The notes under the pieces are model-generated. The model did not search any database and was not told the origin of the DNA. It worked only from the letters and a program-made list of their open reading frames with translations. 64,000 nt of DNA from Psilocybe cubensis (taxonomy: Eukaryota): NCBI GenBank assembly GCA_017499595.2, contig CM039002.1, forward strand, positions 2,170,001 through 2,234,000, written 5' to 3'. The position numbers were made by a program, and so were the translations under genes. Shown one piece after another: positions 1 to 35,269 of the stretch (its first letter is position 1; each line of letters starts with the position of its first letter).

Positions 1-2
1 GT

Positions 3-1967
3 CTATCTGAAGTAGAAAGGAATTATGAGATCCATGACAAAGAGATGCTGGCTATTATCAGAGCACTAGATGAATGGAGACATTATCTTGAAGGAACCCA
101 ACATTCCTTTGAGATTTGGACAGACCACAAAAACTTAGAGTACTTTATGGTTGCCCAAAAGCTCAGCAGAAGGCAAGCCAGATGGTCACTCTTCCTGTCC
201 AGATTTGATTTTACTCTTCATCATAGGCCTGGTAAAAGATCTCTTAAGCCAGATGCTTTGTCTAGGAGACCAGATCATAAAAAGGGAGAGAATGATAACC
301 AAAATGTAGTTCTCCTCAAACCTTCCTACTTTAAAATCCAGGCTCTCAAGCAGGGTCATGCTACCATTACTGGTGCAGAAAATGATCTTCTTAAGAAGAT
401 TAGAGAAGCTAAGGAGATGGATGAAAAGGTGGTCAAGGCAGTTCAGGAGCTCAAGAAATCTTCAACCAAGAAGATTGAAGGACAGGAATGGTCAGAAGAA
501 CAAGGTCTTATTCTCTATAGGGGGAAGGTGTATGTTCCCAAGGACAAAGATCTTAGAAGAAAGATTGTGGAACTGCACCATAATGCCTTCATTGCTGGAC
601 ATCCAGGGAAATGGAAGACAATTGAGCTAGTCTCTAGGAATTATTGGTGGCCAGGAATGTCACATTTTATTGCAGCCTATACCAGAGGTTGTGATAGATG
701 CAACAGAACCAAAACCTTTCCAGCCAAACCTCTTGGTCTTTTAATTCCTACTGAGATTCCCTCTGATGTCTGGCAATGCATCTCTGTGGACTTTATTATG
801 GGGTTACCAGAATGTCAAGGGTATAATGCCATTATGGTGGTTGTGGATAGACTTAGTAAAATGATCCACATTATCCCTACTACAGATGAAGTCACTTCTG
901 AAGGGACAGCCAGACTATACAGAGATTATGTCTGGAAACACCATGGCTTACCCATTAAAATTCTGTGTGATAGAGGTCCACAGTTTGTCTCAAGGTTTAT
1001 GAAAGAACTCAACTCAATACTTGGTATCCAGACAGCCTCATCTACAGCCTACCATCCCCAAACTGATGGTCAGACTGAAAGAGTTAACCAAGAAATTGAG
1101 CAGTATCTTAGACTCTTTATAAACCATAGACAAGATGATTGGGTTGAATGGTTAGCTCTAGCTGAATTCTCTTATAACAATAGAGTTCAGGCTTCAACCA
1201 GGCAGACACCATTCATGCTCAATAATGGCAGACATCCCAGAATGGGCACTGAACCCCTTAGAGATAGTAAAATGGACACTGTGGATACCTTTGTGAAAAA
1301 TATGGAAGAAGCCAGGAAAGAAGCAGAGTCTGCACTTAGAAAAGCTGCTGATGATATGGCTAAATTCTATAATAGACACAGAGGTACTCCAACTCAGTAC
1401 AAAGTTGGGGATTTGGTATGGTTGGATGGCAAGGACCTCAAAACTGATAGGCCCTCCAAAAAATTGGATGATAAAAGATATGGGCCTTACAAAATTACCA
1501 AAGTTATTAGCCCTAATGCCTATGAGCTTAAGCTGCCATCTACCATGAAAATCCATCCAGTGTTCAATGTGGTTAAACTTCTACCTTATCACCCAGATAT
1601 TGTAGGAAGAAAGCCTCCTTCTAGACCACCACCTGTCATTCAAGGAGAAAATCCTGAGTGGGAAGTTGAATTTATCAAGGACAGTAGACTTTTTAGAAAC
1701 AAACTTCAATATTTGGTCAAGTGGAAGAACTATCCTAATGAAGAATGCACTTGGGAGCCTGCAGAGCATTTGAAAAATGCTTCTAAGGCTATCAAGGACT
1801 TCCATGCCAAACATCCTTCAGCACCTAGAAGGATTTCTGCTGTGACCTTTGATAGACTTTCTTTCACTCCTATTATTAACTTTACTGAACCTCCTCCTCT
1901 TCTTAAACCCTCTAAACTAACCCATCCATGTGCACATTGTGGAAAATGTGCCTTAGAGAGGGGGTGA
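3..1967 (+). CDS. Pol polyprotein, C-terminal part (RNase H, integrase, chromodomain); 5'-truncated by the window edge
   Basis: Open frame from base 3. RNase H motifs ERNYEIHDKEMLAII and WTDHKNL; integrase zinc finger HHNAFIAGHPG...CDRC; core SVDFI, CDRGPQF, HPQTDGQTERVNQ; GPY module; chromodomain WEVEFIKDSR...YLVKWKNY...TWEP. Confidence 0.95.
   Translation, partial: LSEVERNYEIHDKEMLAIIRALDEWRHYLEGTQHSFEIWTDHKNLEYFMVAQKLSRRQARWSLFLSRFDFTLHHRPGKRSLKPDALSRRPDHKKGENDNQNVVLLKPSYFKIQALKQGHATITGAENDLLKKIREAKEMDEKVVKAVQELKKSSTKKIEGQEWSEEQGLILYRGKVYVPKDKDLRRKIVELHHNAFIAGHPGKWKTIELVSRNYWWPGMSHFIAAYTRGCDRCNRTKTFPAKPLGLLIPTEIPSDVWQCISVDFIMGLPECQGYNAIMVVVDRLSKMIHIIPTTDEVTSEGTARLYRDYVWKHHGLPIKILCDRGPQFVSRFMKELNSILGIQTASSTAYHPQTDGQTERVNQEIEQYLRLFINHRQDDWVEWLALAEFSYNNRVQASTRQTPFMLNNGRHPRMGTEPLRDSKMDTVDTFVKNMEEARKEAESALRKAADDMAKFYNRHRGTPTQYKVGDLVWLDGKDLKTDRPSKKLDDKRYGPYKITKVISPNAYELKLPSTMKIHPVFNVVKLLPYHPDIVGRKPPSRPPPVIQGENPEWEVEFIKDSRLFRNKLQYLVKWKNYPNEECTWEPAEHLKNASKAIKDFHAKHPSAPRRISAVTFDRLSFTPIINFTEPPPLLKPSKLTHPCAHCGKCALERG
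1955..1964 (+). other. Polypurine tract (plus-strand primer)
   Basis: AGAGAGGGGG, 3 nt upstream of the LTR start TGTCAGGG. Confidence 0.85.
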
Positions 1968-14035: not shown

Positions 14036-17000
14036 ATGCCATCTCAACGAACATCAAGCACCAGGAAAGCTAAGAAGAAGGCACTATATGAAGATGATGC
14101 AAATGCAGCAGATGCCGTAACATACAAGCATCAAACCAGAACAACACGAGCAGGCAAGGTTGTTTCTGAGCTTGTAAAGGTCTCTTTGAGCACTTCAGAT
14201 AGACCCCGTAGAAAGAACCCAGGAGAACCAGAAGTGCCAAATGTGGATGAGAATGCCAGTCAGGAGTTCAATGGGGACAATTATGGGGCACCAGAAAGTC
14301 CCCACGGTGAAGATGTAGTCCCCAAAATATGCAAGGTGTGTGTATATTTTTTATTTTATAGATCAGCTTACCATTTATTTTTGCGTAGACGCAGCGAGAC
14401 TATATTAACCAATACGTGTCTCGTGTAGATGACTTGCTGGGAGCATTGCTCAGCCGAGAGGCACCCAACATTCCAGACAATTCCGAACGGCCTATTTGCT
14501 CTAGCTGCAATAATGATTTAATTGCAGTATGGCGTTGTAAAGATTGTAGCTTACCATCCATGGTTTGTAGGATGTGTATGCGACACACTCACCAAGTAAA
14601 TCCAATGCACAGAATAGAACGTTGGACGGGATCCTACTTCCGGCAGGCACATCTATGGGAAACTGGTACCTATATTCTTATACCCCATCACACTGGAGAC
14701 TCTATATGTTCGTCACTGAACTTTCAGATTAACTACCTTGAAGGTATTGAGGAGGAAAAGGACAAAGAGGAGCAAATACAACTACACCAGTTGACATGGA
14801 AACAAGCGCCCGTCGGAGACTTTTTGACAGGTCATGCCGAAGATATTGATATTCAAATGGATAGCCCTGAGGATGACCCGACTCATATTCACGAAGGCCC
14901 TACCGATGATGAATTTGAAGAGTACCTAGACAAGTGTCGAGAAAATCCTTCGCTGCTGGATGACTTCCATGATTGTGATGATGAAACCGAAGTCGGGGAG
15001 GCGGAGGATGATGTGCAAGATATGCCTTATTATCTCCGACCACATTTTGGCAACAAAAACAAAGTCACCCCGACAGCAACTCCAAAGACCGACGGACTCA
15101 ACAATGCGTATGTTCGGGCAATTCACACTAATGGTGTTCATCACTTGGCCATGGTATATTGTGTATGTCATGGTGCCCAACAGCTTCCTCAGGATCTTAT
15201 TGCAAGCCGATTATTGCCAACAAGTTTTCATCGCATTCGTACCGTATTCTCTGCTCAACTTCTAGACTATTTCCGACTATCCAATCTGGAGCTCAAGGCT
15301 TCGGCTTATCAGTTTTATTCTCTTATCCGACGAATGACAAATCCATTGTCTCCTTCTAGTGTTGTGGATTTATACAATGAATTCCGAAGAATGTCAAGAC
15401 TATGGAGGTGGATGAAGAAACTTAAATGGGCAGGGTTTGCAGGACATAATGGAAAAACTGCACTGTCTGTCGGAAAAGGCGAACTTGGTATTTTCTGTCC
15501 CGCATGCCCACAACCAGGTATTAACTTACCCGACAATTGGAGAGAAGATCCAAATCGTTGGGTTTACAAACGAGTATTTGTGGCCGACGGAAACTTCAAA
15601 GCAGACCATGTCCGCTCAGAAAAGCCATCTCGGGATGTCTGGCTTTCGGAAGGCAGTGGCATGATTCCAGATCGCACAGAATATCATGCATTCCTTAAAT
15701 CTGCAATAGAGGCATTGACAGTCAGTATATTCAGTACTCTTGTTTTAATTCAAATATAGTGAAACTAATCTATGCTAGGGTGCTCCATGTGAGAATACCT
15801 TCCGTGCAATTCAAAACTCACTGCTATCTAAGTCATCTTGTGACGTTACGGGGATTGTTGGCATTGCTTGTGCCCGACATGGCTGCTACGCCCCAAATGC
15901 AATTGTAGACCTTTTTAAAGGTGAGCAGCAGAAAAATGTTGACTTTGCATTTTTGGCTGCGCTTGCATCAACTGGAGTCCATCCCGACCAAGGCACTATG
16001 GTGATATATGACATTGTCTGCCAGTACATCATATGGCTGCTCAAACGCATTAAACACCATCTTCCTGAAGGTCTCAAGATTGACAGAGCAATTGGAATGT
16101 TCCATGTTCATGCTCATAAAGATGAGTGTTTTTTCAGATATGCTCCCACATTTATTCCTGGTGCCGCCTGTGTGTGTGGCGAGATTCTGGAGTCATTGTG
16201 GGCCGACTTGAATGCTATTTCTCCAGCGGCTCGTACAGCAACACTGGCTCACCGTGCTGAAATCCTTGACGATCACGCTTGTGACTCCAACCACAAAAAA
16301 GCACTTAATTTAACAAGATACCTGTGCCGACGATACCTCGAAGCCGACGAGACAAGAGACAAATATCGGATATGTTTTGCCAATCTTAACAGTGCTGTCG
16401 ATCCCGAAGCAGTTAAACTATGGATGAAGCAAATTGAACACGTAGAAAAAAATCGATTGGAAGACCCTAAACTCATGGATATATATACTGCTAAGCGACC
16501 CGGATCTGTTCCAGTCAATACAAGTACAAGTGACTGTGCCTGCCCTACTGTGCCGCTGACTCCGGTACAGTCATGGATCCAATTTGCATTAGTGATTGAA
16601 GAAAAGCAGTACGTATAATTGTTTAAATTACTATACATTTTTAACAGTGCAAATTCCATTGTTTAGATTAGACATACGTATGCGTGCACGGCGGCTTGTC
16701 AATCATGATCGTCTCCCCGACTGTGTCAAACTCCAGAAGCTACGCGAGTCTCTCAAGACATTAATGGTTCAGCTTGCTAAACTTCAGTCTAAAGCTGGGG
16801 TGATTGCTACTGGGAGGCAAGATATTGAAATTTCCGACCAGATTTTAATTGATTGGGAAGACGAAGAAGACGTTTTAGCTCCAGGATCGGGTCCAACAAT
16901 AAATGAAGACATTGACCTACAGCCAATATGCCTACCATCAAATGGCAGTGCAGATGCAATGTATGCATCCGATGAACTCAAAGCCAGAATATCCCAAGCT

Positions 17001-17745
17001 CGAGGCCATCTTAATCAAATCCGAGAGCTTATCGCGGAACGCTCCTTTCAGTTTAAAGAAGTTGTCCAAAAGGGCCCACGTAAAGGTGTCCGCACACGAG
17101 GTCAAACAGCAGTAAAAGAGTTAAAAGATCAAATTTCTCTACATGCTCAGGCATATTCACACTGTCGAAGTCGCATTGTCAAGCTCGGGGCCGACGATGA
17201 AATTCTTAGAGAGTTGCGCATTTTAACCAAAGATGACATCAAGTCAAGTACTGCAATTCTCAATCCAAATTTGCCAGGGTCAACCAAATTTCGTTTATCA
17301 TGGATTTGGTATTCTGTACACCAAAGATTTGGACCGCGGTGGGCACTTGACCCGACAGCTACACCTGATTCCGACCCAAACGCGTTATCGGAGGACGCAG
17401 ATCCTGCCACTGTTCTTGAATGTGAGTTAAATCATTAATATTCAACCATGGGCGCTTATATATTCCCAACCCAATTTTATAGTTAAAAGAGTTCATTGGT
17501 TGCGTGCAAGGGCACTATATCACAGGTGGAATGAAGAAGCAACCCTTGTACGATATGAGATGCAGTGGACCGTTGCATATTTTATGCATCAGAGTAAAAA
17601 ATGGGTGAAATATGTCGAGTCGGGGCCAACACTCAGCGCGGGTGCAATAGCTTACGCTTATCGCAAATCTGATTCTTGGCGTAGCTTGGCGATGGCTGGA
17701 GATCAATTATTTAAATGCATAAATCCCCTGTACAAACCATTGTAA
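14036..17745 (+). CDS. KDZ transposase with N-terminal CxC2 cysteine cluster (outer element)
   Basis: CxC2 region WRCKDC...CRMCMRHTHQVNPMHRIERWTG, IHTNGVH, CPACPQPGINLP; catalytic core DGNFKADH, CARHGC, KGEQQKNVD, YDIVCQY, FHVHAHKDEC, GEILESLW; C-terminal WLRARA...RWNEE. About 5 exons, no disabling change seen. Confidence 0.93.
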
Positions 17746-17779
17746 TTTCAAATACCCCTCTTGTTCACTTACTTCCATC

Positions 17780-17914
17780 ATGAGCACTGAAGAACTCGAT
17801 CCTATCAAAGTTATCACCGTCTTTGACCCTTTCGATCACAATTACGCACGCCGGTCAAAGAAAGGGAGGCAAATTCAAAAAACGGTTATTTTTGCAAATT
17901 CAAGATTCCGCAAT
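17780..17914 (+). pseudogene. 5' part of outer gene E, interrupted by the inner KDZ insertion
   Basis: MSTEELDPIKV...NSRFRN ends exactly at the TSD and continues in frame at 33533 (ILEHILKAPTVRQKKWMQECLQIEL). Confidence 0.8.
17908..17914 (+). repeat. Left target-site duplication CCGCAAT
   Basis: Identical 7-mer at 33526-33532, immediately outside the right TIR. Confidence 0.92.
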
Positions 17915-18232
17915 CACATAAGACAGTTTATTTATAACGTACATTACCTAAGATTTAATAATAAGGATATTACGTGAGACACGGTGGATTTACTTCCGCT
18001 ACCTAATTAGGAGATTAGCGTGATGTACGTGTGATTTAGCCTGGCAAATCATAGCGTACATGACGTGCCATTTAGCGCTAAATGGAGCCGCCGGGTGGCC
18101 TGCGGGATCCGCGCGTCTACCTACACGGAAGAAACACGGGCCGGAAATGAGCCGGACGGGTCCATTTGCATCCCGTGTATTGCAAGCAGACGGATCCGCT
18201 TGACCCGTGTTGTGCTGTCAGACGGACCCATT
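17915..18232 (+). repeat. Left terminal inverted repeat (318 bp), begins CACATAAGACAG
   Basis: Reverse complement of 33208-33525 except at 17980/33460 and 18038/33402. Confidence 0.95.
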
Positions 18233-18310
18233 TGACCCGTATCTTCCCAGAGAGGGAGGGATATTTGAGAGGTATTGCGAATCAATGAGCACAAGGGCTC
18301 CAAAAATAAT

Positions 18311-19453
18311 TTATTCATCTCTACCGGTATACAAATGCTTTTCCAAACTCGATTCAATCCCTGCCAGCCCAGCGTCAATTTCCTCCAGCGCATTATAAGT
18401 CAGAATTTCTGACTGCAGCTGATGCAGGCGGAGGTTCTTAAACGTTGTGACCTTGCTGTCATAACTATTGTCGCCGACGGAACTGTCGATTATTTGGTCG
18501 TATGTTGCCCGTAGCTGCTGCTCGGTATAATTCTAAAATAGTTGTCAGTATCTAGTGCTTGGTAATATCTGAGTGCATACATATAGAAAAGGAGGGTTAA
18601 AATATGCCGTCTGATCTGTCACATCCTTGAACTCAATGTCAGACTGGGTGGGAGGCGAACCGGGGTAGCCGCCCATGGAATCAAACCTGCCGTAGGTTCG
18701 AAAATAAGGGTTTTGAAGGAGCAGGTGGCATGCTTCAGGGGGTGGAGAATAGCGACCTTGCTTCCTCTCAGAGGAAATAGCTGGACGAGAGTCCATAATG
18801 ATTTTGTCGACGACAGACGTGTATGAAACATGTGCTGCCATCAACGGCGGAGCCACATCATCCCGGATGACAGGCATAGGTGGAGGATCCAGGGTATCTG
18901 GAATAACAGGCATAGGGGGAGGAGCCAGGGTAGGTGGAATGACAGGCATAGGGGGAGGAGCTAGGTTATCTGGAATGATTGGCATTGGCGGCGGAGCCGT
19001 GTCGTTCCGGATGACAGGCATTGGCGGCGGAGCCGTGTCGTTCCGGATGACAGGCATTGGCGGCGGAGCCGTGTCGTTCCGGATGACTGGCATAGGGGGT
19101 GGAGCCAGGTTAGCTGGAATGACAGGCATAGGGGGTGGAGCCAGGTTAGCTGGAATTACTGGCATTGGCGGCGGAGCCAGGTTAGCTGGAATGACAGGCA
19201 TAGGGGGTGGAGCCAGGTTAGCTGGAATTACTGGCATTGGCGGCGGAGCCAGGTCTTTCCGGATGACTGGCATAGGGGGCGGAGCCAGGTTAGATGAAAT
19301 GACTGGCATAGGGGGAGGAGCCAGGTTATCTGGAATAACAGGCATAGGGGGTGGAGCCAGGTTATCTGGAATGACTGGCATTGGCGGCGGAGCCAGGTCA
19401 TCCGTCCTTGCTGTGCGTTTGCTTTCCTTAGAGTTGCTAATATTTGAAGACAT
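18311..19453 (-). CDS. Proline-repeat protein with helical C-terminus (inner gene A), 2 exons
   Basis: ORF 19453-18581 with (LAPPPMPVIPxN)n; intron 18533-18580; last exon NYTEQQLRATYDQ...IDAGLAGIESSLEKHLYTGRDE*. Confidence 0.65.
18845..19398 (-). repeat. About 15 x 36-bp coding tandem repeat (LAPPPMPVIPAN)
   Basis: ggcataggggg(t/a)ggagccaggttagctggaatgaca and ggcattggcggcggagcc units on the + strand. Confidence 0.9.
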
Positions 19454-19938
19454 TGCTGATGCTCAGAAATCAATTAAAATTTACTTGAATTAATGCCATT
19501 AGTCTTACATTTTATAGGTTTTACGGGAGGAGGTTCCTTCAGTTTTTCAAGAAGCCTGGTAAGATTGTTGAGACTGGTGTAGTCAATGGGGGAATTTTTG
19601 CTAGAGGTGGGAATAAAGTTGTAGGAGGACATACAGTCCAGAAAGTGCAACTGGGTGGGCTTGTTTATATATCTCACGGAATACAATACTATCCGAGGAT
19701 TCTCCATGACACGGAAATAGATTCACCCGTGTATCGAACTTAGCAACTTTTGCACAAACTGGATCTGGTGAAGAAATCACATGACTCAGATTGTACATGT
19801 TTGTGTATGGTTTTGTTTTGCGGGACCGCTTTTTTTTAGACTTTTTTTAGACTAACTCCAACCACGATCACCACCCTCACGTTCTACCGTGCCTCACCCA
19901 TTTAACGCGTCTTCCCCCATAAAAACACGCTTTTTTCA

Positions 19939-20642
19939 ATGGCCGCTTCATCTTCCACCACCGCCACCTTCGCCCAACGCCTCGCTGACTGGGAAAAAAA
20001 GTTTACCGAGTGCTACCGCAACGGTGAAAGCGCGTTCAACGCTGAGTTGGAGCAGCTTTACAGGGACTTGGTAAGTTCTCAATTTTATAAGATCATGACT
20101 TGCTCAACAAAAAAAAAAAAATTCCAATAGGTTCCATTGTGTCAGGAGCATGTCAGGGACGCCGCCCGCTTCCGGCTCATTGACTATGTTGCGAGCCCCG
20201 TTGTCTACTCGTACAAAGTCATCCAGGGCAAGGACGGCGAGAACATCTACAGGTTTGAGGTCGACTGGGCGACGCTCAAACATCAAGTCGCCAACTTCAA
20301 GGCCTACCAGGAAGGCCAGGAGGCACAGAGGAAGAGGAGGGAGGAGGAGGAGCAAGAGAAGAGGAGGGAGAAGGAGGAGCAAGAGGAGGAGGAGAGGCAG
20401 AGGGTGGAGGAGAGGAGGAAGAGGGAGGTGAGGAGGAAGAGGGAGGAGAAGAAGAAGAGGGAGGAGGAAGAGGAGAGGCAGAGGGAGGAGGAGGAGGAGA
20501 GGCAGAGGGAGGAGGAGAGGAGGAAGAGGGAGGAAGAGAAGCAGAAGGTGGAGGAGAGGAGAAAGGATGAGAGGAGGAAGAGGGAGCAGGAGAGGAGGAC
20601 CAGGGAGCAGGAGAGGCAGAAGGCGGAGGAGAGGAGGAAGAG

Positions 20643-20676
<34 letters not shown>

Positions 20677-22515
20677 ACAGACGAGGAGAGGAACAAGGAG
20701 GAGACGGAGAAGAGACAGGCCGAGAAGGGCAAGGGCAAGGCAGTCGAACCCCCGGTGGAAGACGGACCCGTGACAGACGCCCACAAAGACAAGGGCAAAC
20801 GGAAAGCGGCGGACCCCGTGGAGTCCATTCAGTTGGCTCCAGCGGATTACAGGGGCCCACGGACAAAGAAGGGGGAAATCATTCCCCACATTACCGCCTC
20901 CAACATGCCCGGTCACCCAGCGTACAGGGAGAAGCTGGAAAGATTGGCGAAGTCCAAGCAGGGGAAATTCAGGAGCAAGGCGATCATAGGAAGCCACACG
21001 GACGAAGACGCGGACGCGGACGTCGACGAGGACGACGAAGGCGATAACAAAGGGGCACCGCCTACCACCCCCACTGCCACCCCCACCCGGAAGATGCGCA
21101 CGCGTTCCGTAAAGAAGGACGCCGAGGACGATGTCCCCCCCATCAGGAAGGCGCGGTCGAGATCCCAGAAAGTGCGCCAGGTGCCAGAGGGGATGGTGGA
21201 CATGGTGGAAAGGTGCACGGCATGCATCAAATTCAAGGTGCCATGCTATGTCAAGGGGGAGACAGGCACTGAGCCTCTTGTCCCCGTGAAGCACCAATCT
21301 TGCGAGTCTTGCAAGTCTCGCAAGATCCACTGCAGCTTCTACCCGGGGCGCAACACCTTCGTGGGTCAATTTTTGATGACGCCACTGGGAAGCTATGGGG
21401 AGGCGTTGAAGTTGGAGGAGGGAGAAGATGTTCCGGCGAAGGGGAAGGCCGGGGAAGGGTCGTTCCCCGAGGATGTGGGAGAACTGCTTGTGCAGCTCTT
21501 TGAGCGCCAAGGCAGAATCATGGAACGGCTGGACGGGTTATCCGCGTCCATAACGGCGATTAATGCACGGATTGCGACGTTTGCCGAGACGAACTTGGCG
21601 GTGGAGAACAGGATGAAGAGCATCGAGGACGGCATCCAAGAGGTGAAGGCCGAATGGACCATGGCCAAAGAACAAGTGGCAGGAAGCACCTCGCTTTCCG
21701 TCACGATGTTCAACGACATCACCAAGAGGATCAACCACGTCCGAGATGTGGTCGACGATTTGCTGGAGCAGGATGAACAAAGGAATCCCGCCCCCAAACA
21801 GGCAGCAGGACCCTCCAAGACGGAGGTCGAACAAGAATCGGGTCCGTCGTGGACCCGTGAACCCACCTCTGTGCCACAATCCCCAAGCGCACCACCACCG
21901 CCAGCACCCCTCCCTTCCCCACCTCCACCTCCAGCAGCACCCATTCTCCCTTCCCCTCCTCCACCACCGCCAGCACCTGTCCTCCCTTCCCCTCCCCCAC
22001 CTCCACCCGCACCCGTCCTCCCTGCCGTGTCTGCGCCACCAACAGCGCTATTCTTGCCCGGTTCGACTCCGGAAGCGCCTTCGCCCCCCCCAGCTGGCCG
22101 ACCCTCGCTCCCACCGGTACCACCCATCCTTTCCCTGTCTCCACCACCCCCTCTCCCAGCTCCACGTCCTCGAAGTTCGACGTCAAAGGCCGCACCGTTG
22201 TCAAAGGGTGCACCATCGTCAAAGGCCGCGCCATCGTCAAAGGCCGGCCCATCCTCAAAGGCTAAGCCATTGTCAAAGGCTAAGCCATCCTCCAAGGCTG
22301 GGCCATCCGGGAATGGACACTCATCGGAGTTGTCTGATCCCTCGGACAGCGACGAGGTTGAAATTGTGGAGGAGGAGGATGTTGAGATCGTGGCGTCCAC
22401 GCTGCCCGCGTCGAACATAGCCACAAAGACAAGGGCTGGACGAAAGCGAAAGGCGGAAACGACTCTGGCTGAAGCATCGCGCTCGCCCAAAAAATCCAAG
22501 GCCCAAAAAAAGTAG
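19939..22515 (+). CDS. Zn2Cys6-like cluster protein with E/R/K charged helix, coiled coil and Pro-rich tail (inner gene B), about 838 aa
   Basis: Exons 19939-20070 and 20131-22515 join in frame. C-x2-C-x6-C-x18-C-x2-C-x6-C at 21214-21333; C-terminal RKRK...PKKSK NLS-like patch. Confidence 0.75.
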
Positions 22516-22793
22516 TGTATTTCAATTCTTTGTAACTTTTTTTTGGTCTCCTTTTTTGCCTGTCATATATTACATTGCTCACATCCCTATACAATTTTTT
22601 CATCATTTGGACTGTATATAGTTTTTACTCTCATGTGCTCATCTGTTTTATACCTCTCCCAAAAAGTAGCACTTGATGATTTTTAATGAACCCCGCTTTC
22701 TGTTTTGATTTTGTGTGAAAACATGTTTGAGAAACATCAAGATAAGAATAAAAAGCATCACATTCAATAGGTATCATGAATCTACTTCAACAG

Positions 22794-25104
22794 CTAGGCT
22801 TTCAAAGTTTTTTTTCTTTGTCTTTTACCTGCTACAGCAAGCAGACTTGCTTCCTGAAGTGCTAAGGCATCCGAAGTCACATTCCTGCGGGCCCGTGTTT
22901 CATCCGTATCTGGACTTGTTACTGTCTCCACAAAGGCATCACAAGTCACGTCCCTGCCGGCCCGTGTATTATCCGTGTCTTGGGTTGTTCCTGTTTGGAC
23001 TCCATCTTCTTCCACTGTGTCAAGTGGATCTGAGTAGGGCTTTGTTCTTTTCCTAGGTTGAATCCTTCTAGTTGGTTTTGGCTTAACTGGGGGGGGTACA
23101 GAACTCTCTTCATTGGGTCCGTCCATTTCCGCCGTTCCGACATATGGCTTTGTTCTTTTTCTTGGCATAATCTTTCTAGCTGGCTTGGGAGGCGCCTCCT
23201 CAACCTCTGGAGTTGGGCTGGATGATGGATTGACAATTGTTGGGCTGGATCTACTTGGTAGAGAGGGTGGCTCGCTAGATCTTGAAGGTGCGTCGGTAGG
23301 AGTCTCATCCGTCTCTGGCGTGACTTCAAATCTGGCAGTAGTGCGTGGCATCGCGGATGCCGGACTGCCCCGTCCATTATCAAACTCTGACAGATTGGAT
23401 GATTCAGAGTCGCTTGAAGATTGGGTTTGAAGTCGTATAGCTTTTTGCCTCAGCCGACGTTTGGTTATGGCTGCAGGAGGTGGAGGTATCGGGTGGGCTT
23501 CTAGGCCGTCAAACAAGTTGGACGGATAGAGAGGTTCCATAATGTCATAGCCATTTCCAAAAACCTTTGAGAATTTAAAGGGGATGTCTCCTTGCGCTTG
23601 ACGGTCCCTCCATAGCTTGAGAATTGCAGAAGTTGACTCCAGGCGGAGCCGGCTCGGATCCGTCACGGGGATTGAACTTGGCCAATACTCTGGATCAATC
23701 ATTTCTGCAGAACGCCTTTCAAGAGCATCCCAAGGAACACTTGAACCAGGCCTATCCTTGGCTAAAGCTGTATACATAGTTAGCAAGTTTGTTGAGGACA
23801 TAGACAAATTACACACCATAAACCTTGTTCATGTAAATTCTAATAATTGACTTTTGCGCATAAGCGACTTCTCTCCCAGTTGAGCCATAGATAGGACTAG
23901 GTACTATTGGAAATCCATTGCTGCTAAACTTGAGGGATTTTTCATGAAACGATGCATCTGGCAGTGCTGGATTGGCCACACCCTTCTCTATTTCTGAAAT
24001 GTGGACGAGGTATTGAACAAACGCTCTGCGAAAAGCGGCCAACTCGGATGGAAAGAGTTGCCCAAAGGAAGGAATTCTGACATTGTCGAGTGCTAGATCG
24101 CTTGTCTGGGTCCTTCAATGCCCATCAGTCAACATTAATACGGGTCAAATTATTCCGCCGTGAATGCTTACGGCGGAAACTTTATCCGCCGTAGGGTGTT
24201 TACGGCGGATAAAGTTTCCGCCGTAAGCATTCACGGCGGAACTTGTTCATGCCGTGTTTAACACTTACATTGAGTATTCGATTTTACCCTCAATATCATA
24301 ATGCCCCTCAAAGGTAATGGACCTCATACCCATTCTCTGCCACTTAAGTTTCTCCATTTGTCGAAGTATTTTTCTGCCTTGCCTGGCAGCAGTCCTGCAG
24401 ATGTCAGATTGACGGCGGAAACAAGTTCCACCGACTCACTTTGCCTTCATTGATTTTGAAACACCTTTCTTATTCCATTCCTCGAGGATCTCCATGAACC
24501 TGTCCCGCTCCTCCTGAGTCAATCTGGCCTCAACCTGCTTACGTCCTTGTTGATAAAACTTCATCCAATCTTTACTTCCACGAGCAGCATTCCCTGATAG
24601 AAGCGCAACCTCGGAGTCAATCTCTGCCGACTTCTCCTCACGGAATACCGTCTGAAAGGTTATACGGGAGTTCAATCCTTCCAATTTTACACCAATTCGA
24701 TTTGACGCATGGTTTCTAAACCAATTAAAAATTCGCTATTGTGATGGTTTATGTGTGTAACAAAATTTTCAAAGAAACAACGAGCTCACATGCTTCTTCA
24801 CCTTCCATTCTTTGTGTAGTTGCTTATCTTCCTTCCTAGCACGTCTAGAGTATCTGTGATCCCATGTAGCTTGCAGCTCAGGTATGACAGTGTTCTGTAT
24901 GTAGTCTGCTTTGGATGACTTTGATGTATCTTTGTAGGGCTGTACATGCTTTTTCAACACGCGCATTTCCTTTGTGGTCCATATATTTGATTCTTCCGGC
25001 GGAAAGTCACCCTCTGCCGTCTGTCCGCTTCTGGGTCCGTTGTGGGTTGTGGCATTTGCGGTGGAAGGAAGCGGATCCGCGTCGGGGGATGCATTGGTGG
25101 GCAT
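22794..25104 (-). CDS. Multi-exon homeo/HMG-like helical protein, divergent from the transposase (inner gene C)
   Basis: Spliced motifs RIFNWFRNH, RLTQEERDRFMEILEEWNKKG, WQRMGMRSITF, NGFPIVP, VPWDALERRSAEMIDPEYWP, WRDRQAQGDIPFKFSKV. Homologous to 11182-13737. Confidence 0.72.
24153..24241. repeat. Perfect 41-bp inverted repeat with 7-nt loop inside an intron
   Basis: TTCCGCCGTGAATGCTTACGGCGGAAACTTTATCCGCCGTA - GGGTGTT - exact reverse complement. Confidence 0.95.
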
Positions 25105-25983
25105 AATTGCAGCGATGTAACAAGTAGCTTATCAATGAGTATCTGTGTGATCTAGTCAAATCTCACGTCATACGGAGATAAAATAAGCTTCCGATCATAC
25201 TAAATGAATGATGTGATGTCATATTTTTCCCAATCAGGTAATCCCGCTTCATAGTCGGCCACGATGATCAAAGCATGCTGGTCGCTGTCACATACATTGA
25301 CCTCATGATTTTGCAATAGTTCCCTCTGCACTCAATCAATAAACATGAAATTTTGTAAACATTTAGCGCTTTATATAAAGATAATCTTACAAGGTTTTAA
25401 ATTCTTGTTAGATGGCTGTAAAGATACAGAAACACAAAATTCAAATTCACGTCTTCTCACCCAAAACTTGTGAAACCCAAAACGGCAGTCATCTCAGAGA
25501 CCATGAGAGGTATTCAAATGCATAATTTTTTTCAAAAAATATAATGATCCCAGTGAGCTCATTTTGACACATTTTCTAGTATATTGAGAATATCTCCTTA
25601 AATACGAGGATTCACATTCTACAAAAAATGTCATTCGGTAGCTATTAAAAATATCTTTCATATGATATACGCCGGAGGAATGAGGGGCCAGCCAGTGAAA
25701 AGATATTTCAAAAACACTCCAAAGTGTGGTTCTGAAAGGGTCGTTCTGCATCATATTGTACATTTATGATGGGATCACGTCCATTTTGTGCATCTCTGGA
25801 TTAAGTTTTGTTCATAACATTTCACTCACTCATCCAAATATGCTGCAAGATAGATCATATGAAAGCTATTTTTCTCCTCTTTAAAACGGCATAATTGAGG
25901 GAAATTTATCTACAGAAATAAACATGTTATACTACATTTAGATCTGCGCTCACAGGCTGTCAGACTCTTTGTTTCCAACATCC

Positions 25984-28900
25984 ATGGGCTTCAAGAAAGT
26001 ACCTGATAGGGGATTGGATGAGGAGTTTCCCAATGTTCGGGAGGCCTCCTGGTCTAGTGGGGCCAAGAAACGAAAGAGAGGGCGGCCGAGGATCCACAAA
26101 CTTCCTGCAGAATCATCATCAACAAACCTCCCTCAAACAACGACTTACTCTTTCCAAAACCATGAACACAACATTCTGGAAGAAGAAATACCTCATTATC
26201 CGGGAGATCTAACTGATCAGCAGGTACTTGATAACCTGAGACAGCTAGATGACGACAGAACGGGAGGAAAGGTATGTTTTAACATGTTTTCAGTAGAATG
26301 ATCAGGATGACTTTACCTATCCAGTCTCAAAATGATTACCTGAGGGAATGGCTCCCGAAACGAGAGGTGTATCTTGGAACAATGATTGGAGGAGAAGCCC
26401 CGGATCCGGATCTGAATGGACGGTGTCAGCAATGTCAAGGAATGTCTGGAGTGTGGAGATGTTGCCAATGCTTTGGCTCTAGAATTTTGTGTTCTGAATG
26501 CCTGCAAAGAAACCATCAATTTACACCTTTCCACCGCGTTGAGAAGTGGACGGGTCTATATTTCCGTCCGGGAGCTCTGTGGGAAGTGGGTGTCAAGTTG
26601 TATTTGGGTCATAATGGGAAGCGGTGTCCTTATCCCACGGATCCGAGCCATCTAGGATGCGACGGCGGAAACAATTCATCCGGGAGTCATGGGCACGGCG
26701 GAAACAATTCGCCCATCTTTGAGGATGAACACGGATTGGATCTGGATCCGCTTCCTGCGAGCAATGACCAAGAATCCTTTACGGCTCAGCTTCTGGCAGA
26801 CCCGGAGGTACCCCATTTGGTTGAGCTGGACGATGGAGACGATGAAGACGATGATCTATTCGAGGAAGTCGATACAACCTATCTGGACCAACCTCGTCCA
26901 AAGGCAGCAGACAACAATGGAATTCCTTTCAAGGCAATTGTGCACACCTCCGGAGTCCATTATCTGCCCGTGCGAACATGCACATGCCGGTCCGTCCGCC
27001 TTCCGTCTATCGATTTACAGTATCTGGAGATGGGATTATTTGCAGCCAGCTTTGAAAACGTTCAAACTGTGTTCACAGTTGAGGTCCTTGAGGACTTTTG
27101 GATGGACAACCTCGAGTGCAAAACGTCGGCTTATCAGTATTACCAAAAGTTGCGAAGACTGACTTCGCCAGCGTTTCCAAAAAAGGTGCTGAACCGCTAT
27201 CGTGAATTGAGAAGGCTTAGTAGAGAATACAGGGACCTTGTCCTGAGACGACAATACGGAGAAGGGCATACAAGAGAAGCGGTGGTCCCTTACTATCATC
27301 ATTGCCATGATTCATCACCAGAGAGGATGGGTATTAATGTATCTGATCCAATTGACGGCGGATCTGATAGTCCGTCTCAAGAAGTCGGAATGTCAACGGA
27401 CCCGTCTCTGGGACACGGCGGATTAGATGGTCCGCCTGCACCACACATGACGCGGACCGAGGATCATCCCAAAGTTGAAGATAGGAGAGGGAAGTTGGCC
27501 TTATTCTGCCCCGCCTGTCCACAGCCTGGAATAAACCTACCTGATACCTGGATTGATGATGCTGACAGGCAAGTTTTAGTTATTCTTCAAGGGTGACTGC
27601 AATTAACAGCAAATAGCAATCTGCACATACGTAGTTATGTTGCAGATGGTAATTTCAAAGCAGATCACCTCAATCAGAAAAACGAGGGAGACGATGTTTG
27701 GTTGAGCGTTGGAGAAGGATACATGACTGCTCCGGGCCCATACAAGGAGCACATCAAGGAAGCAATTTCTCTTGCTCCACGTTATAAACGGGTGCGTTAT
27801 CTACCATGATTTATCTTTCACGGCGGATGCTTACGTTCCGTGTCACAATCTTCCACGGCGGATGCTTCCCTTCCGTGTCAAAAAAATCTTCCACGGCGGA
27901 TGGCTTATCCTCCGTGTAAAAAAATATCAGGAACAAACATGTCATAACTACCACACCCAGAAAGCTGAAAACAGAGTCAGCCCGGGTAAGAGAGTACGTG
28001 GAATTGGGGCACACGCTTGCGCTAGGCACGGATGCTTCTGTCCATCCAGCGTTGTTGATTTTGACAAAGGCGAAAAGCAGATGCACATGGATTGGTCTTT
28101 GACTCAGGCCAGGGAAACTACCAACACACAGGGAATCACAAAACATTTGGAAATCTACGATATAAACTGTCAATATTGCGTTAACTTGGCAAGGCGTCTC
28201 TCAGAGTCCACAAAAATGCATTGGCCACCTTCTGTTAAAATGATTTTTGCAATTGGTTTATTTCACGTCCACGGGCACAAGACGGAATGTCTTTACAACT
28301 ACGCATCCACCTATGTCCCGGGTGTGGGAATCATTGACGGAGAAATCCTGGAGCCGTTGTGGTCCGTGTTAAATGACACATCCCGGAGTACACGTTCCGC
28401 TACCACTGCCCATCGAGCAGAGGTTTTGGACGACCACATGGGGGATTCCAACTGGAAGAAGACCATTAATATGGCTGCAACAATTGCTGCAAAGTTCAAA
28501 CGGGCACGGGAACAGTCCGGAATCACAGACCGATTTTATAGGGGTATCACGGATCAACAAGATTCCGGGCTCATCAACACTTGGGAAGATGAAATTTCAA
28601 AAGCAGAAGCGGACCGAGAACAAGGTGTGGCCGACGCTGTTGGCAAGGTAATGGCAAGCAAAGTGAAAACGGCTGCTGGACGCCAAGAAATTGAATTGCA
28701 TCTTTCAAATATGGAACTTACATCTAATGGTGCTACTGGAAAGGCAGCATGGATATCATCCGGCTTAAAACTGGAGCAAGCGCAGTACGATTATTTCAAT
28801 TGCATCCTACAGAATTTAACATGCTTTTAGATTGGAGCTCAGGGACCATGTCAGAAAGCTCGGAAAGCATCCTTCCACCGCGCAGAAACTTGACTTGGTC

Positions 28901-29906
28901 AATAAACGTCGCTCCATGCGGACCCGCGTTGAAGCCTTCTGTCGATCCGCTATGACCTTCATGGGCGAAGATGTCTTGGAGGATATTCAAGGGGACATCG
29001 CTCCCATACTTGACTATGAAGTCAGTGACAACGACGATCCTGATCTTGGAAATGTCAACATTACCCGCGCGGATCCGGAACGACAGCCGCTTCCGTTTCC
29101 CTCCGCCGTCAAACAAGATTTCTTTGACGGCCTTGACGCGGGAACAAACCTCATTTTAAAAGGGCTTCGCAAACTTGAACTTCAAATAAGACATGGCCAC
29201 GCAGAGGACTGTCTGGAAGCGGTCCGGTCAGCCTTGATCCAGCTTTCTTGGCAGTATAAATATCAGGTTTGGACCGCCGACTCCGTCTATATGGGGACTC
29301 GTGCTTGGGATGGCGTCAAGCTTTTGAATGCTTCCTGGAAATTGCACCGGCGACTCTACAACACAAACCGTCAGAAGATGATCTATTTATCTGCTGGCGT
29401 GCGAGACGAGGATAATATTCGGAAACAATATCCCATTCTGCAAGTCCATGATTGCAAGCATAGTAATGCCGTGTCGGATCCGAACATTCGCGGAGGAAGC
29501 TCGGACCGTCTAAGTTGGATTTGGAGATCCCGTCAGGGCCTGGACAATGATAATCAATTATACGTTAATGAGTGTGAGTACTGCTATTTGTATTTCTAAT
29601 TTTTTTCTCAAGGGCTTCTTAGTCTTTAGGCTAAACTGGCTCCGCGCGCGAGCTCAGAGGAATAGATGGCAAGAGGAGCTGGCCTTGACAAAAAAGGAAA
29701 TGGAATGGACTGTCAGATTTTATGTGTATATGGCAAAGACATGGCGTGCACGGCATGATTTTGTTCCTGACAGGTTAGTTGGTCACAGGGCAAATGCTCA
29801 AAAGCAGATTGCCATGTGGAATGATCTGGGGCGGGCCGCGGATAAGGTCTTCCGTCAAATTAACCCGGAGTATCCGTCCGTGTGGAGATTTATAATTACA
29901 GATTAA
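25984..29906 (+). CDS. KDZ transposase with CxC2 cysteine cluster (inner element)
   Basis: WRCCQC...CSECLQRNHQFTPFHRVEKWTG, VHTSGVH, CPACPQPGINLP, DGNFKADH, CARHGC, KGEKQMHMD, YDINCQY, FHVHGHKTEC, DGEILEPLW, WLRARAQRNRWQEE. About 6 exons including a GC-AG intron at 27569-27616; frame intact. Confidence 0.94.
27818..27920 (+). repeat. 3 x about 33-37-bp tandem repeat (CACGGCGGATG...TCCGTGT) in a transposase intron
   Basis: Lies within intron 27792-27930. Confidence 0.85.
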
Positions 29907-29950
29907 CCAGTTCTTTGAACATTCTTGTTGTATCCCATCTCGTTGAATTC

Positions 29951-31575
29951 ATGCACTTACCGCGGCTTTTTAAACCTCCTGTCGAGGACGAACATCATCT
30001 CCTTACCTATGATGAGCGACGTGCTCTGGCCAAAGTTCATGTCCATATTTGTGGTGCACGGATCCGTGCCGGATACCGTTTGTTCATTGCAAACGGAGAC
30101 TCTGTTTCCTCCGTGTGTCGCCAAAAATGGATGTATTTGCTCGACCTGGAGGTGGTAAGACAGTAATTTTGAACGATTATATCTTGTATTGAGAACTGGT
30201 CGTCAGGCTATACTGCTGAGAGTACTCGGATACTGCTATGTCAATGGATTCCAAGTCAATATTCCATTTTTTATATCAGAAATTCTCAATCAGAGCGTAC
30301 ATGCCGTTTTGAACCGAACTCCCCACCATCAAGCTGTTCTATTTGAATCTCTAAATCAAAGCTGGTCAGCATGGGAAGATGATGAAATTTTAAATCAGAC
30401 CAAGAGCTGGGGATATTGGTGGAGGGACGGATTTGCTGAAGGCGATGAGTGGCAAGTTGCCTTTGTTACCGTTGAATCGCAAGCAAGAGAATTTTGGAAC
30501 AAGGTATGTTTTTTTATTGCTGTGGATTATATCTGATTTGCGTCCTTCCCACCAGGTGGTTCTGCCTGAATACCAACAAGAGGTACTCCGGCTAAATAAT
30601 CAGAGGAAAGAAGCTAAGGAGGGCGCAAGTTCATCTACCTCTGGGCCTCCAAGAAATCAGGAAAACAATCCCAAGGGCAAGGGAAAGGCGGCTGAACGGA
30701 CATCCGTCCCCACCTCGGGGAAGCACGGATCCGCGTTGACGGGAAAGCACGGCTCCGCGTTTTCACCGCCCACGGGGAAACCCAATCCGCCGACCCGTGT
30801 TGCAAACACGCGGGATGAAACATCCCCAATTGCAATTTCTGACCACAGACCGCCCTACTGTCCCCGCTGCGGTCAGCCTATCCTAACGGGCGTAATGAGG
30901 GAGTTGGCTCACCTGCGCCGGAATGTGGCGGACAAAATGAAAAATGCCCATAAAGCAGTGACTACTTCTTCGGCCGCCTTGGGCAGATATTCTGTATTGG
31001 AGAAGATGTGGATTGACTCTAAGGAGCACCCGTTCTCTAACGGCAAGGGGCTTTCAGCCAAATACAAATTTCAGCATCCCGTTCACCCTTCTCCTGACAG
31101 TTGGGGCGCTATAACGGCTCAAGCCCGGTCCTTCGAGGTCTCAAAGCTCAAAGTCGCTTCATTTTACATCAACGACATTTTTTATTCTTTTATTGCCGTC
31201 AAGGAACTACCTTTTCATCCACTCTGGTATCATTCGCCACCCTCCAACACTGCAAATATTCATCTCCCAACAGATACTCTGCCTACTCCCGGTTCCGTCA
31301 GCCCTCCGTCAAATGCACACACCAGCAATGCCTTCCTTTTTAACGCAAGGTCAAGACCTGTTTTCCCGGGAGAAGAGGATGATATTGATAGTACGTCCGA
31401 TACCACTGAATCCTCTACACCAGCTACGTTTTTAGAGCATCTCGCACAGGACTTTGAAGAGGAGGCGGATGAGGAGTCTTCCGCCGGTAATACGACGGAG
31501 GAGTCAGATGCTTCCGGTAACTCGGAAGAGCTTAGCGAGGACGTGTCGGAAACACCCTGGGATGAGGAATCTTAG
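29951..31575 (+). CDS. Acidic-tailed CxxC protein downstream of the transposase (inner gene E), 3 exons
   Basis: MHLPRLFKPP...RQKWMYLLDLE | AILLRVLGYCY...GYWWRDG | ...CPRCGQP...QARSFEVSKLKVASFYI...D/E-rich tail. Homologous to the split outer gene E. Confidence 0.65.
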
Positions 31576-31708
31576 TTGCCCACCTCTCGCACAGGACATC
31601 AAAGAGGAGGCGGATGATGCCTTTTCCGCCGGTAATACGACGGCGGAGTCCGATGATTCCGGTAACCTTGGAAGAGCTCAGCGCGGGCGCGTCGGAAACA
31701 CCCTGGGA
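31441..31708 (+). repeat. About 123-bp direct duplication (31441-31562 and 31586-31708) of the end of gene E
   Basis: ctcgcacaggac...gaggaggcggatga...ccgccggtaatacgacgg...gtcggaaacaccctggga occurs twice. Confidence 0.88.
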
Positions 31709-31802
31709 CAGAGAATTCTGGTTGTTCTGTAGCTTTCGTACCGTTTTGTTTTGGAAATATAAAAAAATCTTCCCCAAACCCAACTTCCAAGTCAAAAACT
31801 GA

Positions 31803-33082
31803 TCATATTTCAAAATCAAAAGTGTTGGTGGCCGGTAAATTTGCAAAAAGATCGTACGTAGTAGACCATCCCGCCTCTTGGACTCCCAGCTCTTTAAATA
31901 CATTCCTACGCATGTAATAGACTATGACTGCCCTATCTCCCTCGCACACCGCGCCGTGTTGAAGCAACCTGCCGGTAATTGCAACAAGGGTCATGGGATC
32001 ATACTTGTACCGAAGTCCAAGGCCAGGAAGCTCAAGCCGTCCGTGTTCACCCTTCCCAAGTGGCATCAAAAAATCGTACCATGAGTAGCATGACCCATTA
32101 TCCCGATGGTACGGTGTATCTCGGTTGCTGATGGCGGTCATGACTCCAAAGGGCGAACTCCATATTGTGAGAATTTGCTTCAATATTTCGGCCTTATGGA
32201 CGAGCTCCGGTTCCGCAGCAAGCCGTTGAAGAAATTTTATTCCCGCCCGGTACTGCTCGGGGTGTATAATGCTCAAGATGGCTCCCAGCAAAGCCGAAGA
32301 TGTCATCATGTCTCGTATAAACTCCTGTCCAATAGGATTACACAAGTCCAAGGAGACCTCAAGCGGGTTGGACGTCTGAGGAAAATATGAGGCAGTATAA
32401 TACTTAGCAAACAAGTTTCTCACCTCATGGCCTTGCTGAAACCATGCCGGGGAAAAGTTAAGATTTCCAGGTTGAAGCCAACCTGGCTCATGTCGAAAGT
32501 AACTGTCATTGACCCTCCAGCTTGTGGCCAAAGGTGCCGCCTTGTGAATCATTGTTTCAATATCCCGTAATGAATTCCACACACTCTCCTGTTACTCTTT
32601 AGAACGCATAATATAGGAATTAATCGGTCCGTTTCTAAAACTCACCACCCTTGTCTCTGACAAAATACCTGGCAGGTACCACACCAATATGTTGCCTGCA
32701 CTATCGATTACAGTTCCGGGCAGGGTTTGGTACTGTAACGTGGAATGCACCGGAGGAAACTGGTCTTTCAGGCGAGCCTCAACGGCAGAATTCTGACCCG
32801 TGCAACGTGCGCTGAGATGGGTCAAATATTCTTCTGCATCCCACGTCATATATTCTGCCATTCACACATTATTTAATCTCAATTTTCAAAGCTTATTGAT
32901 TGCATACCTTGATTTTCAAATGCCTGCAAAATCACCTCCACAGCTAGATTGCACTCAAACATGGTCTCAGCACTGAAGTTTTCCCGGATTTGATTAGGCA
33001 GTTCTGCATGCCAAAGACGACTAGCTATCTTTGCCTTCATGTAGTTTGAGAGGGATTGGGTTAGCTCAAAGGCATAATCCAT
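31803..33082 (-). CDS. TET/JBP-family 2-oxoglutarate/Fe(II) nucleic-acid dioxygenase, 4 exons
   Basis: Fungal TET/JBP motifs GNILVWYLPGIL, SPAWFQQGH, LSIIHPEQY, ISNRDTPYHRD (HxD), LELPGLG, LLQHGA (distal His) and DRAVIVYYMR (2OG-binding Arg). Confidence 0.9.
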
Positions 33083-33207
33083 ACTATCAGGGTATGTGGA
33101 AAGGAATTTGCTGCCAGTATAATCTATACACCTTATTACATATATTAACGGTCATCCAATGTACGATTCAAGGCGGATATTTGTTGGAATACAGAAGCGG
33201 ATGGATG

Positions 33208-33525
33208 AATGGGTCCGTCTGACAGCACAACACGGGTCAAGCGGATCCGTCTGCTTGCAATACACGGGATGCAAATGGACCCGTCCGGCTCATTTCCGGC
33301 CCGTGTTTCTTCCGTGTAGGTAGACGCGCGGATCCCGCAGGCCACCCGGCGGCTCCATTTAGCGCTAAATGGCACGTCATGTACGCTATGATTTGCCAGG
33401 CCAAATCACACGTACATCACGCTAATCTCCTAATTAGGTAGCGGAAGTAAATCCACCGTATCTCACGTAATATCCTTATTATTAAATCTTAGGTAATGTA
33501 CGTTATAAATAAACTGTCTTATGTG
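33208..33525 (-). repeat. Right terminal inverted repeat (318 bp)
   Basis: Reverse complement of 17915-18232; ends ...CTGTCTTATGTG. Confidence 0.95.
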
Positions 33526-33532
33526 CCGCAAT
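33526..33532 (+). repeat. Right target-site duplication CCGCAAT
   Basis: Matches 17908-17914. Confidence 0.92.
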
Positions 33533-35083: not shown

Positions 35084-35269
35084 TCTGTACATTGTTCTGT
35101 ATTGTAGATACAATTTGTGTACTTCCGAATAATATTTGTATTCTTTTCTTGATAACTTGAAACCTTTTCTATGAGTATAGTGAACCACTCCCAATTCCAA
35201 TATCACAATTTATTTATTCTGACCACGGTTCCAACATACTGACAACTTGAAAATCACGCTGCTGTTAGT

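Follow-up and report, generated by a model that had tools for sequence, protein, structure and literature searches.

Organization of the Locus

The 64,000-nt window analyzed here (positions 2,170,001 to 2,234,000 of contig CM039002.1, assembly GCA_017499595.2, Psilocybe cubensis; all coordinates below are those of the window) contains a discrete 15,611-bp unit that begins and ends with long terminal inverted repeats (TIRs) and lies between two copies of the same 7-bp target-site duplication (TSD). The unit encodes a KDZ transposase, a TET/JBP dioxygenase and a number of cargo genes, and is very probably a young and structurally complete member of a multi-copy family of cut-and-paste KDZ transposons, best placed in the Kyakuja lineage. 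Twenty open reading frame (ORF) translations from the element were searched against Pfam, three of which gave matches. For comparison with other genomes, 12 public runs were found to cover, completely or in part, a 10-kb query spanning the left junction, and four of these were aligned to 16000-35500. Run X13 consists of raw Illumina reads, while X6 and X1 are represented by contigs (Logan; short-read de Bruijn assemblies). The features of the element and the basis for each are as follows.

17908..17914, no strand: left TSD copy CCGCAAT (sequence; single copy in the X6 empty-site contig)
17915..18232, plus strand: left TIR, 318 nt, beginning CACATAAG (sequence; loose read ends in X13 at 17914/17915)
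18545..19462, minus strand: cargo ORF A, proline-rich, with about 18 copies of the 12-residue unit LAPPPMPVIPxN (open ORF)
19939..22515, plus strand: cargo gene B, 838 residues, two exons (19939-20070, 20131-22515) and a 60-nt intron (colinearity with paralogues)
22794..24114, minus strand: cargo ORFs C (23809-24114, 22794-23828), Ser/Pro-rich (open ORFs)
24153..24241, no strand: perfect 41-nt palindrome with a 7-nt loop, intergenic between two cargo genes (repeat search)
24436..25128, minus strand: cargo ORFs D (24769-25128, 24436-24735), Lys-rich (open ORFs)
25984..29906, plus strand: transposase with CxC2 and KDZ, 1195 residues, six exons (Pfam; exon model guided by P. cubensis P0071)
29903..31575, plus strand: downstream ORF set F (29903-30115, ~30180-30506, 30550-31575), matching no Pfam family
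31803..33082, minus strand: TET/JBP dioxygenase, ~373 residues, four exons (Tet_JBP in Pfam; CcTet alignment; colinear with P0084)
33208..33525, minus strand: right TIR, 318 nt, finishing CTTATGTG (sequence; loose read ends in X13 at 33525/33526)
33526..33532, no strand: right TSD copy CCGCAAT (sequence; X6 empty-site contig)

Element Ends and Target-Site Duplication

A repeat search across 16000-35500 returned a single long inverted pair, 17915-18232 and 33208-33525, with a length of 318 nt and 99% complementarity. It can be observed by direct comparison that the two arms differ at 2 of 318 positions, namely position 66 (C versus T) and position 124 (A versus G), both of which are transitions, and that the likeness ends abruptly at the inner edge. 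The left junction reads ...GATT-CCGCAAT-CACATAAG... and the right junction reads ...CTTATGTG-CCGCAAT-ATTCTTGAA..., such that the unit between the TSD copies has CA...TG ends. The probability that 7-mers at two fixed positions agree by chance is 1/16384. The initial annotation had described TIRs of 318 bp with two transitions, exact termini and CCGCAAT on both flanks, all of which were reproduced by the repeat search and the direct comparison. Its designation of the unit as a fully delimited, CxC2-type, TET-carrying KDZ element also agrees with the exact ends and with the Pfam matches to CxC2, KDZ and Tet_JBP. No second copy of the element was found in the window. Sub-terminal repeat motifs within the TIRs were limited to a local palindrome and one duplicated motif of ~32 nt, and a search of metagenomes with the 25-nt TIR terminus gave 0 matches.

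Empty and Filled Alleles in Public Runs

In run X6, which comes from a related strain, a contig of 2826 nt joins 17907 directly to 33526, skipping 15618 nt and retaining one CCGCAAT. At the joint, seven letters fit either side and none lie in between. The contig was aligned over 608 window positions on the left (17300-17907) and 1975 on the right (33526-35500), with 1 and 9 other letters, respectively, and its depth of 29.6 corresponds to the flank depth of 29-30. The empty-site sequence that had been predicted from the window was therefore recovered exactly, and it proves that the TSD is 7 bp long and that the insertion is recent or polymorphic. Divergence of the flanks from the window reached ~0.5%, and the lineages of X6 and the window are therefore not clones. 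In X1 the site is filled: contigs covering 17300-17942 and 33497-35440 display 0 other letters and depths of 16.2 and 15.5, equal to the flank depth, and no empty-site joint was seen in this run. Neither X13 nor X9 contains the locus, as judged from depth. No RNA run was listed among the runs containing the stretch, which says nothing on expression.

TIRs are not regenerated at transposition, and for this reason their near-identity provides no date for the insertion. The earlier statement that the element was probably recently inserted is thus upheld by the empty site and by the near-identity of the copies described below, while the similarity of the TIR arms has to be withdrawn as dating evidence.

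Copy Number and Variation Within the Family

Reads of X13 that enter the element from outside break off at the same two points. At 17914/17915, loose ends were present in 257 and 343 reads (600), with a consensus agreement of 0.36-0.38, and at 33525/33526 in 103 and 60 reads (163), with an agreement of 0.38-0.49. Since the flanks at these loose ends are heterogeneous, many copies must end at the same nucleotides in different genomic places, which bears out, at both termini, the expectation that other copies would end at the same positions. Among the X13 loose ends listed, no pair of left and right flanks from other copies sharing a 7-mer was found. The depth of X13 was 0-3 on the flanks and ~450-680 on the element (both mate directions summed), and 31211 of the 53795 aligned reads were at least 99% alike to this copy. 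Depth on the element compared with that on the flank was ~300 versus 16 in X1 and ~1000 versus 30 in X6. This ratio suggests a family of ~15-30 copies, contig depths being rough copy numbers only. The flanking region and the complement of copies vary between closely related runs.

Rearranged copies were also detected. Internal deletion derivatives in X13 join 19586 to 26507 (10 reads) and 32182 to 33177 (27 reads), the latter having lost most of TET, and a TIR variant among the copies joins 18070 to 18135. At the palindrome at 24153-24241, 63-nt deletions are found in many copies, with 24152 joined to 24216 and 24169 to 24233 (108 and 127 X13 reads, respectively, and one X6 contig), suggesting that the hairpin is unstable. 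In nine X13 reads, the right terminus (33525) is rejoined to 32986, which would fit the insertion of one family member into another, or copies arranged in tandem. The number of units in the 36-bp tandem repeat of cargo ORF A likewise differs between copies, as reflected in X13 joints from 19049 to 19158 and from 19376 to 19017.

At 20076 and 21347, 122 and 72 X13 reads, respectively, leave the element for one consistent foreign sequence each (agreement 0.98), and depth across 20.5-21.9 kb is below that of the rest of the element. Therefore, a sub-family with a different or interrupted cargo gene B is present. With this copy as the reference, differences between the copies in X13 are heavily skewed towards transitions, comprising 114 C>T, 139 G>A, 62 A>G and 70 T>C changes, with 114 transversions in total. 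The dominance of C>T and G>A would be expected if the copies were methylated and decaying by deamination despite TET.

Transposase Gene

Two of the Pfam matches belong to the transposase. CxC2 (PF18803) was matched at 26283-27596 on the plus strand (E 5.1e-21; 75.3 bits versus a cut-off of 27) and KDZ (PF18758) at 27727-28830 on the plus strand (E 3.1e-37; 128.8 bits versus a cut-off of 26.6), while CxC1, CxC4 and SWIM gave no match at E<=0.01 in the seven ORF pieces of the transposase region. The six exons (25984-26271, 26325-27568, 27617-27791, 27931-28784, 28831-29573 and 29623-29906) form an open frame, separated by introns that are 46-139 nt long and have GT/GC-AG ends. When the KDZ ORF was used as the query in a word-indexed search, 69 proteins were recovered at E<=1e-10. 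Each is from an agaricomycete, many being from Coprinopsis cinerea, and each contains PF18803 and/or PF18758. The best relative, P. cubensis JR316_0009328 (1691 residues), is 99% identical, and its 90% cluster has 39 members. The 15 members listed represent 15 different P. cubensis loci, with lengths of 809-1707 residues; therefore, the family is multi-copy in P. cubensis. In an alignment with 67 homologues, 67 columns show conservation of at least 93%; the transposase retains 65 of these, among them all those with a conserved Asp or Glu. The departures at near-invariant columns are A578T and M805A. The rare residues L11, W355, H470, T578 and W1001 are each common to exactly one of the 15 listed paralogues, whereas Q157 is private to this copy.

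Public annotation of Psilocybe is inconsistent with regard to this gene, its length being 1195 residues in some models and ~1690 in others. Among the 15 listed P. cubensis models, four stop at 29906 (...INPEYPSVWRFIITD; 1195 or 1174 residues) and 11 run into the downstream ORFs. When the 1691-residue model was traced on the window, the fusion was seen to pass through a 26-nt "intron" (window 29875-29902), and the model as a whole needs introns of 26 and 35 nt. The shorter form appears the likelier one, because an intron of 26 nt is implausibly short, because distant homologues have ~1000-1100 residues and because the homology of a neighboring KDZ gene, described below, ends at the same point. 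The downstream ORFs would then probably constitute a unit of their own. ORF set F may be a gene in its own right or may extend the transposase at its C-terminus, and represents a possible seventh ORF set, at 29.9-31.6 kb, in addition to the six genes counted initially.

TET Gene and Cargo

The TET gene is located between the transposase and the right TIR and is convergent to the transposase. Its Tet_JBP match (31803-32591, minus strand; E 3.6e-19; 69 bits) is above the curated cut-off. In the alignment with residues 200-418 of CcTet (7vpn; E 2.5e-27), H326 and D328 correspond to H and D, D337 corresponds to D, and G331 is replaced by S. The iron-binding residues HRD...H are present, the distal His being conserved. 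The gene is colinear with P0084 (JR316_0010379), with no stop in any of the four exons, and JR316_0010379 itself adjoins the transposase JR316_0010380 on a P. cubensis chromosome. The Coprinopsis cinerea enzyme CcTET (7vpn/7w5p, 8jkk) thus shares its HxD motif and distal His with the Psilocybe ORF, although it belongs to another species, several mismatches and two gaps occur in the aligned stretch, and the Psilocybe enzyme is a predicted one.

Cargo gene B is open and colinear with annotated P. cubensis paralogues (P0098, 838 residues; P0099). JR316_0002971 (838 residues), with which it is colinear, is situated two genes away from the transposase JR316_0002973. The product of cargo gene B has a domain at the N-terminus, a stretch rich in E/R/K residues, a CxxC(x6)C...CxxC(x6)C cluster, a long helix and a tail rich in proline. 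A HMMER search of 1.84 billion representatives returned five relatives at E<=0.001, all unnamed. Two distant ones among them (~30% identity) have the cysteine cluster and the conserved helix in common with it, and one of these two, P0104, matches the whole layout. A Zn_clus match was below threshold (E 0.034), and the AlphaFold model of the central part was poor, with a mean predicted local distance difference test score (pLDDT) of 56.5 and a predicted template modeling score (pTM) of 0.23.

ORFs A, C and D match no Pfam family, and for the cargo overall no match was obtained even at E<=5 beyond the sub-threshold Zn_clus. The repeated unit of ORF A is encoded by a 36-bp tandem repeat of ~18 units (18809-19456), and ORFs C probably form one spliced gene. 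A transfer RNA scan of the element returned 0. It had initially been stated that all six internal genes appear intact. The transposase, TET and the 838-residue cargo gene are open and colinear with annotated paralogues; the other three are to be regarded as open ORFs only.

Classification and Comparison With Known Systems

A KDZ catalytic domain, an N-terminal CxCn domain and bounded termini with a TSD are features of the KDZ superfamily, and all are present in the element. Those given for Kyakuja by Kojima 2025 (PMC12730594) are also found, namely a 7-bp TSD, 5'-CA..TG-3' termini and an AG-type TET inside the element. Dileera and Zisupton are reported to have 8-bp TSDs (PMC12730594), in contrast to the 7 bp observed here; moreover, neither the CxC4 nor the SWIM of Zisupton is found in the transposase-region ORFs, and CxC2 is present instead of the CxC1 of Dileera. 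From these sequence features, the element is best placed in the Kyakuja lineage of the KDZ superfamily. CxC2 reportedly goes with Kyakuja (Iyer and colleagues, 2014).

According to Kojima 2025, Kyakuja families with TET occur in five orders of Agaricomycotina and have 7-bp TSDs and CA..TG termini, two Laccaria families being without TIRs; AG-type TET is found in some Zisupton as well, and the TET genes of Coprinopsis cinerea are said to be Kyakuja-associated (PMC12730594). The two Laccaria bicolor families, Kyakuja-1_LB and Kyakuja-2_LB, resemble the Psilocybe element in their 7-bp TSD, 5'-CA..TG-3' termini, KDZ transposase and agaric host, and in an AG-type TET that retains the D337 equivalent and has Gly/Ser at the G331 position. 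They are reported without TIRs, whereas the Psilocybe element has 318-bp near-perfect ones. KDZ1, KDZ2 and KDZ3 of Cryptococcus neoformans, which were caught inserting into reporter genes (PMC11343200, PMC12810828), are likewise giant (9-11 kb there), with long TIRs (139-241 bp), extra genes and several near-identical copies. Unlike the Psilocybe element, they contain CxC1, belong to the Dileera clade, have 8-bp (4-8 bp) TSDs and lack TET. Furthermore, their mobility was shown experimentally, whereas that of the Psilocybe element is suggested by the empty-site allele. Zisupton, from fish and fungi, belongs to the same superfamily and has TIRs and TSDs, but its TSDs are of 8 bp and its transposase carries CxC4 and SWIM (PMC12730594, PMC11343200). 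The view, held in the initial annotation, that fungal KDZ elements have been defined mainly from gene neighborhoods is out of date in light of these three articles.

Proposed Mechanism and Alternative Explanations

From what is known of the family, the 1195-residue DDE-type transposase would recognize the 318-bp TIRs by means of its CxC2 zinc module and KDZ core. Excision would occur by cutting at CA...TG, and integration would take place at nicks staggered by 7 bp, the repair of which would generate the CCGCAAT duplication. The CcTET-like (AG-type) 5-methylcytosine (5mC) dioxygenase most likely oxidizes 5mC on or near the element, countering silencing by methylation, an anti-silencing role for which Kojima 2025 and the Coprinopsis work cited there have argued (PMC12730594). 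Four or five fast-evolving cargo genes would travel with the element. Mobility of the element at the present day, by itself or in trans, is no more than plausible, and that the family is transposing in present-day strains can be proposed only tentatively.

A number of points weigh against the interpretation as a young Kyakuja transposon. The junction contigs of X1 extend 28 and 29 nt into the TIRs, under the 31-letter bridging rule, and X1 may be the source sample of the window itself, which makes its support weaker and non-independent. The length of the TSD is taken from this one insertion together with the literature, and the Kyakuja placement from the TSD, termini, TET and domain features. 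The competing transposase models and the approximate nature of the copy number, both described above, belong here also. No transposition or excision event was observed in the data examined. In addition, the rare changes in the transposase, including two Arg->Trp replacements and A578T, may have impaired the enzyme of this particular copy.

As an alternative, the insertion might be a genuine KDZ element of a family that is now inactive. Its presence or absence would then reflect lineage sorting of an old polymorphism, and this copy would be an immobile relic. Such an explanation would be in keeping with the fact that neither transposition, excision nor expression was observed, with the rare non-synonymous changes (A578T, at a near-invariant position, among them), with the existence of internally deleted derivatives (19586 to 26507, 32182 to 33177 and others), and with the difference of up to ~0.5% in the flank of X6, whose lineage is not clonal with that of the window. 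However, of the X13 reads from the element, 58% match this copy with an identity of 99% or more, P. cubensis has many full-length copies whose transposase models are open, the transposase, TET and cargo gene B are all open, and both the flanking region and the complement of copies differ between closely related runs. Inactivity of the family is therefore considered rather unlikely, though it is the most probable of the three alternatives.

Assignment to another KDZ lineage, Zisupton or Dileera, has also to be considered, the placement being based on sequence features. Zisupton typically has long TIRs, as do the Dileera-type KDZ1-3 of Cryptococcus (139-241 bp; PMC12810828), Kyakuja-1_LB and Kyakuja-2_LB are described as lacking them, and some Zisupton possess an AG-type TET (PMC12730594). 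Such an assignment is nevertheless improbable given the TSD of 7 bp rather than 8, the N-terminal CxC2 with no CxC1, CxC4 or SWIM at E<=0.01, the CA..TG termini as reported for Kyakuja, and the fact that the 69 relatives at E<=1e-10 are all agaricomycete, and contain PF18803 and/or PF18758, many being from Coprinopsis cinerea, for the TET genes of which a link with Kyakuja is stated (PMC12730594). Finally, the empty allele of X6 might not be ancestral. A deletion between the 7-bp repeats, precise excision or an artefact of assembly might have produced it, in which case the TSD would be unproven. The joint is present in one contig of one run only, and Logan contigs are short-read de Bruijn assemblies. 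Against this, the depth of the contig (29.6) equals that of both flanks (29-30), 608 and 1975 letters are aligned with none between, recombination between 7-bp repeats over 15.6 kb is very unlikely, and precise excision would itself demonstrate mobility. A non-ancestral origin of the empty allele is thus highly improbable.

Genomic Context and CpG Content

Outside the element, 54 ORFs were searched against Pfam, eight of which had matches. Transposon-related genes outside the element include the following.

3..1964: Gypsy-type pol ORF, 654 residues, open (Pfam matches to RNase H, integrase and chromodomain)
14389..17745, plus strand: second, divergent CxC2 and KDZ transposase gene (Pfam CxC2 3e-17, KDZ 3.4e-38)

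The outer KDZ gene lies upstream of the element, with 163 nt between its stop codon and the insertion point; the element has landed directly downstream of an older, different KDZ gene. The outer and inner transposases have 26-40% amino acid identity over most segments, with one 30-residue stretch at 67%, and the nearest relative of the outer gene in the comparison set is a Galerina protein (35-47%). The outer KDZ region (14389-17745, and 33533 to ~35500) is present in X1 and X6, while its depth is approximately zero in X13 and X9, from which it follows that the outer element, or the region itself, is polymorphic for presence and absence. Candidate ends for the outer element were evaluated and rejected. 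Inverted matches at 6961-6982/35809-35830 and 7000-7032/35794-35826 had E-values of 0.57 and 6.9 and no TSD; 71 pairs of CA..TG ends with a 7-bp TSD were obtained, none with convincing terminal similarity; and 0 pairs of CACA..TGTG ends with a 7-bp TSD were found. Ordinary host genes start near 39.9 kb.

The observed/expected ratio of CpG was 0.80 for the element, 1.31 for the TIR and 0.94 for the host genes. The CpG retained by the element fits a role for TET without proving it, and the youth of the element alone could explain the value. At the Gypsy pol ORF (window 1-2000), 16 kb from the element, zero CpG are present in 2 kb, where ~80 would be expected by estimate; in the rest of the window the ratio was 0.5-1.2. 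The CpG-free Gypsy sequence could be the result either of extreme mutation directed at CpG, with the reading frame spared, or of evolved CpG avoidance. According to Kojima 2025, no hypermutation has been detected in Agaricomycotina (PMC12730594).

Significance

KDZ elements are among the largest fungal cut-and-paste transposons, and if any transposon opposes silencing by DNA methylation, those carrying TET are the foremost candidates. To our knowledge, the mobility of Kyakuja elements with TET has not yet been shown. It was not until 2025 that complete elements of this kind were reported, on the basis of consensus sequences (PMC12730594). The main text of that article contains 0 occurrences of "Psilocybe", and the Psilocybe family may already be listed in its Table S1 or in Repbase. 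New here are the Psilocybe family, the fact that a Kyakuja-type element has long and nearly perfect TIRs, the natural occurrence of an empty-site allele and the nested position adjacent to a different KDZ gene.

The locus offers a single actual copy whose ends are exact, the corresponding empty site from a sister strain and ~15-30 near-identical copies. The host is an easily cultured mushroom, and the locus suits excision and insertion assays as well as methylome comparison. It is a clean and useful reference copy and an experimental handle, which will be no surprise to specialists. If the family is transposing now, no earlier KDZ element with TET (Kyakuja) would have combined defined long TIRs with an insertion polymorphism occurring naturally between strains, and the family would provide a tractable test of whether a 5mC dioxygenase encoded by a transposon protects that transposon against silencing by methylation and against CpG decay.

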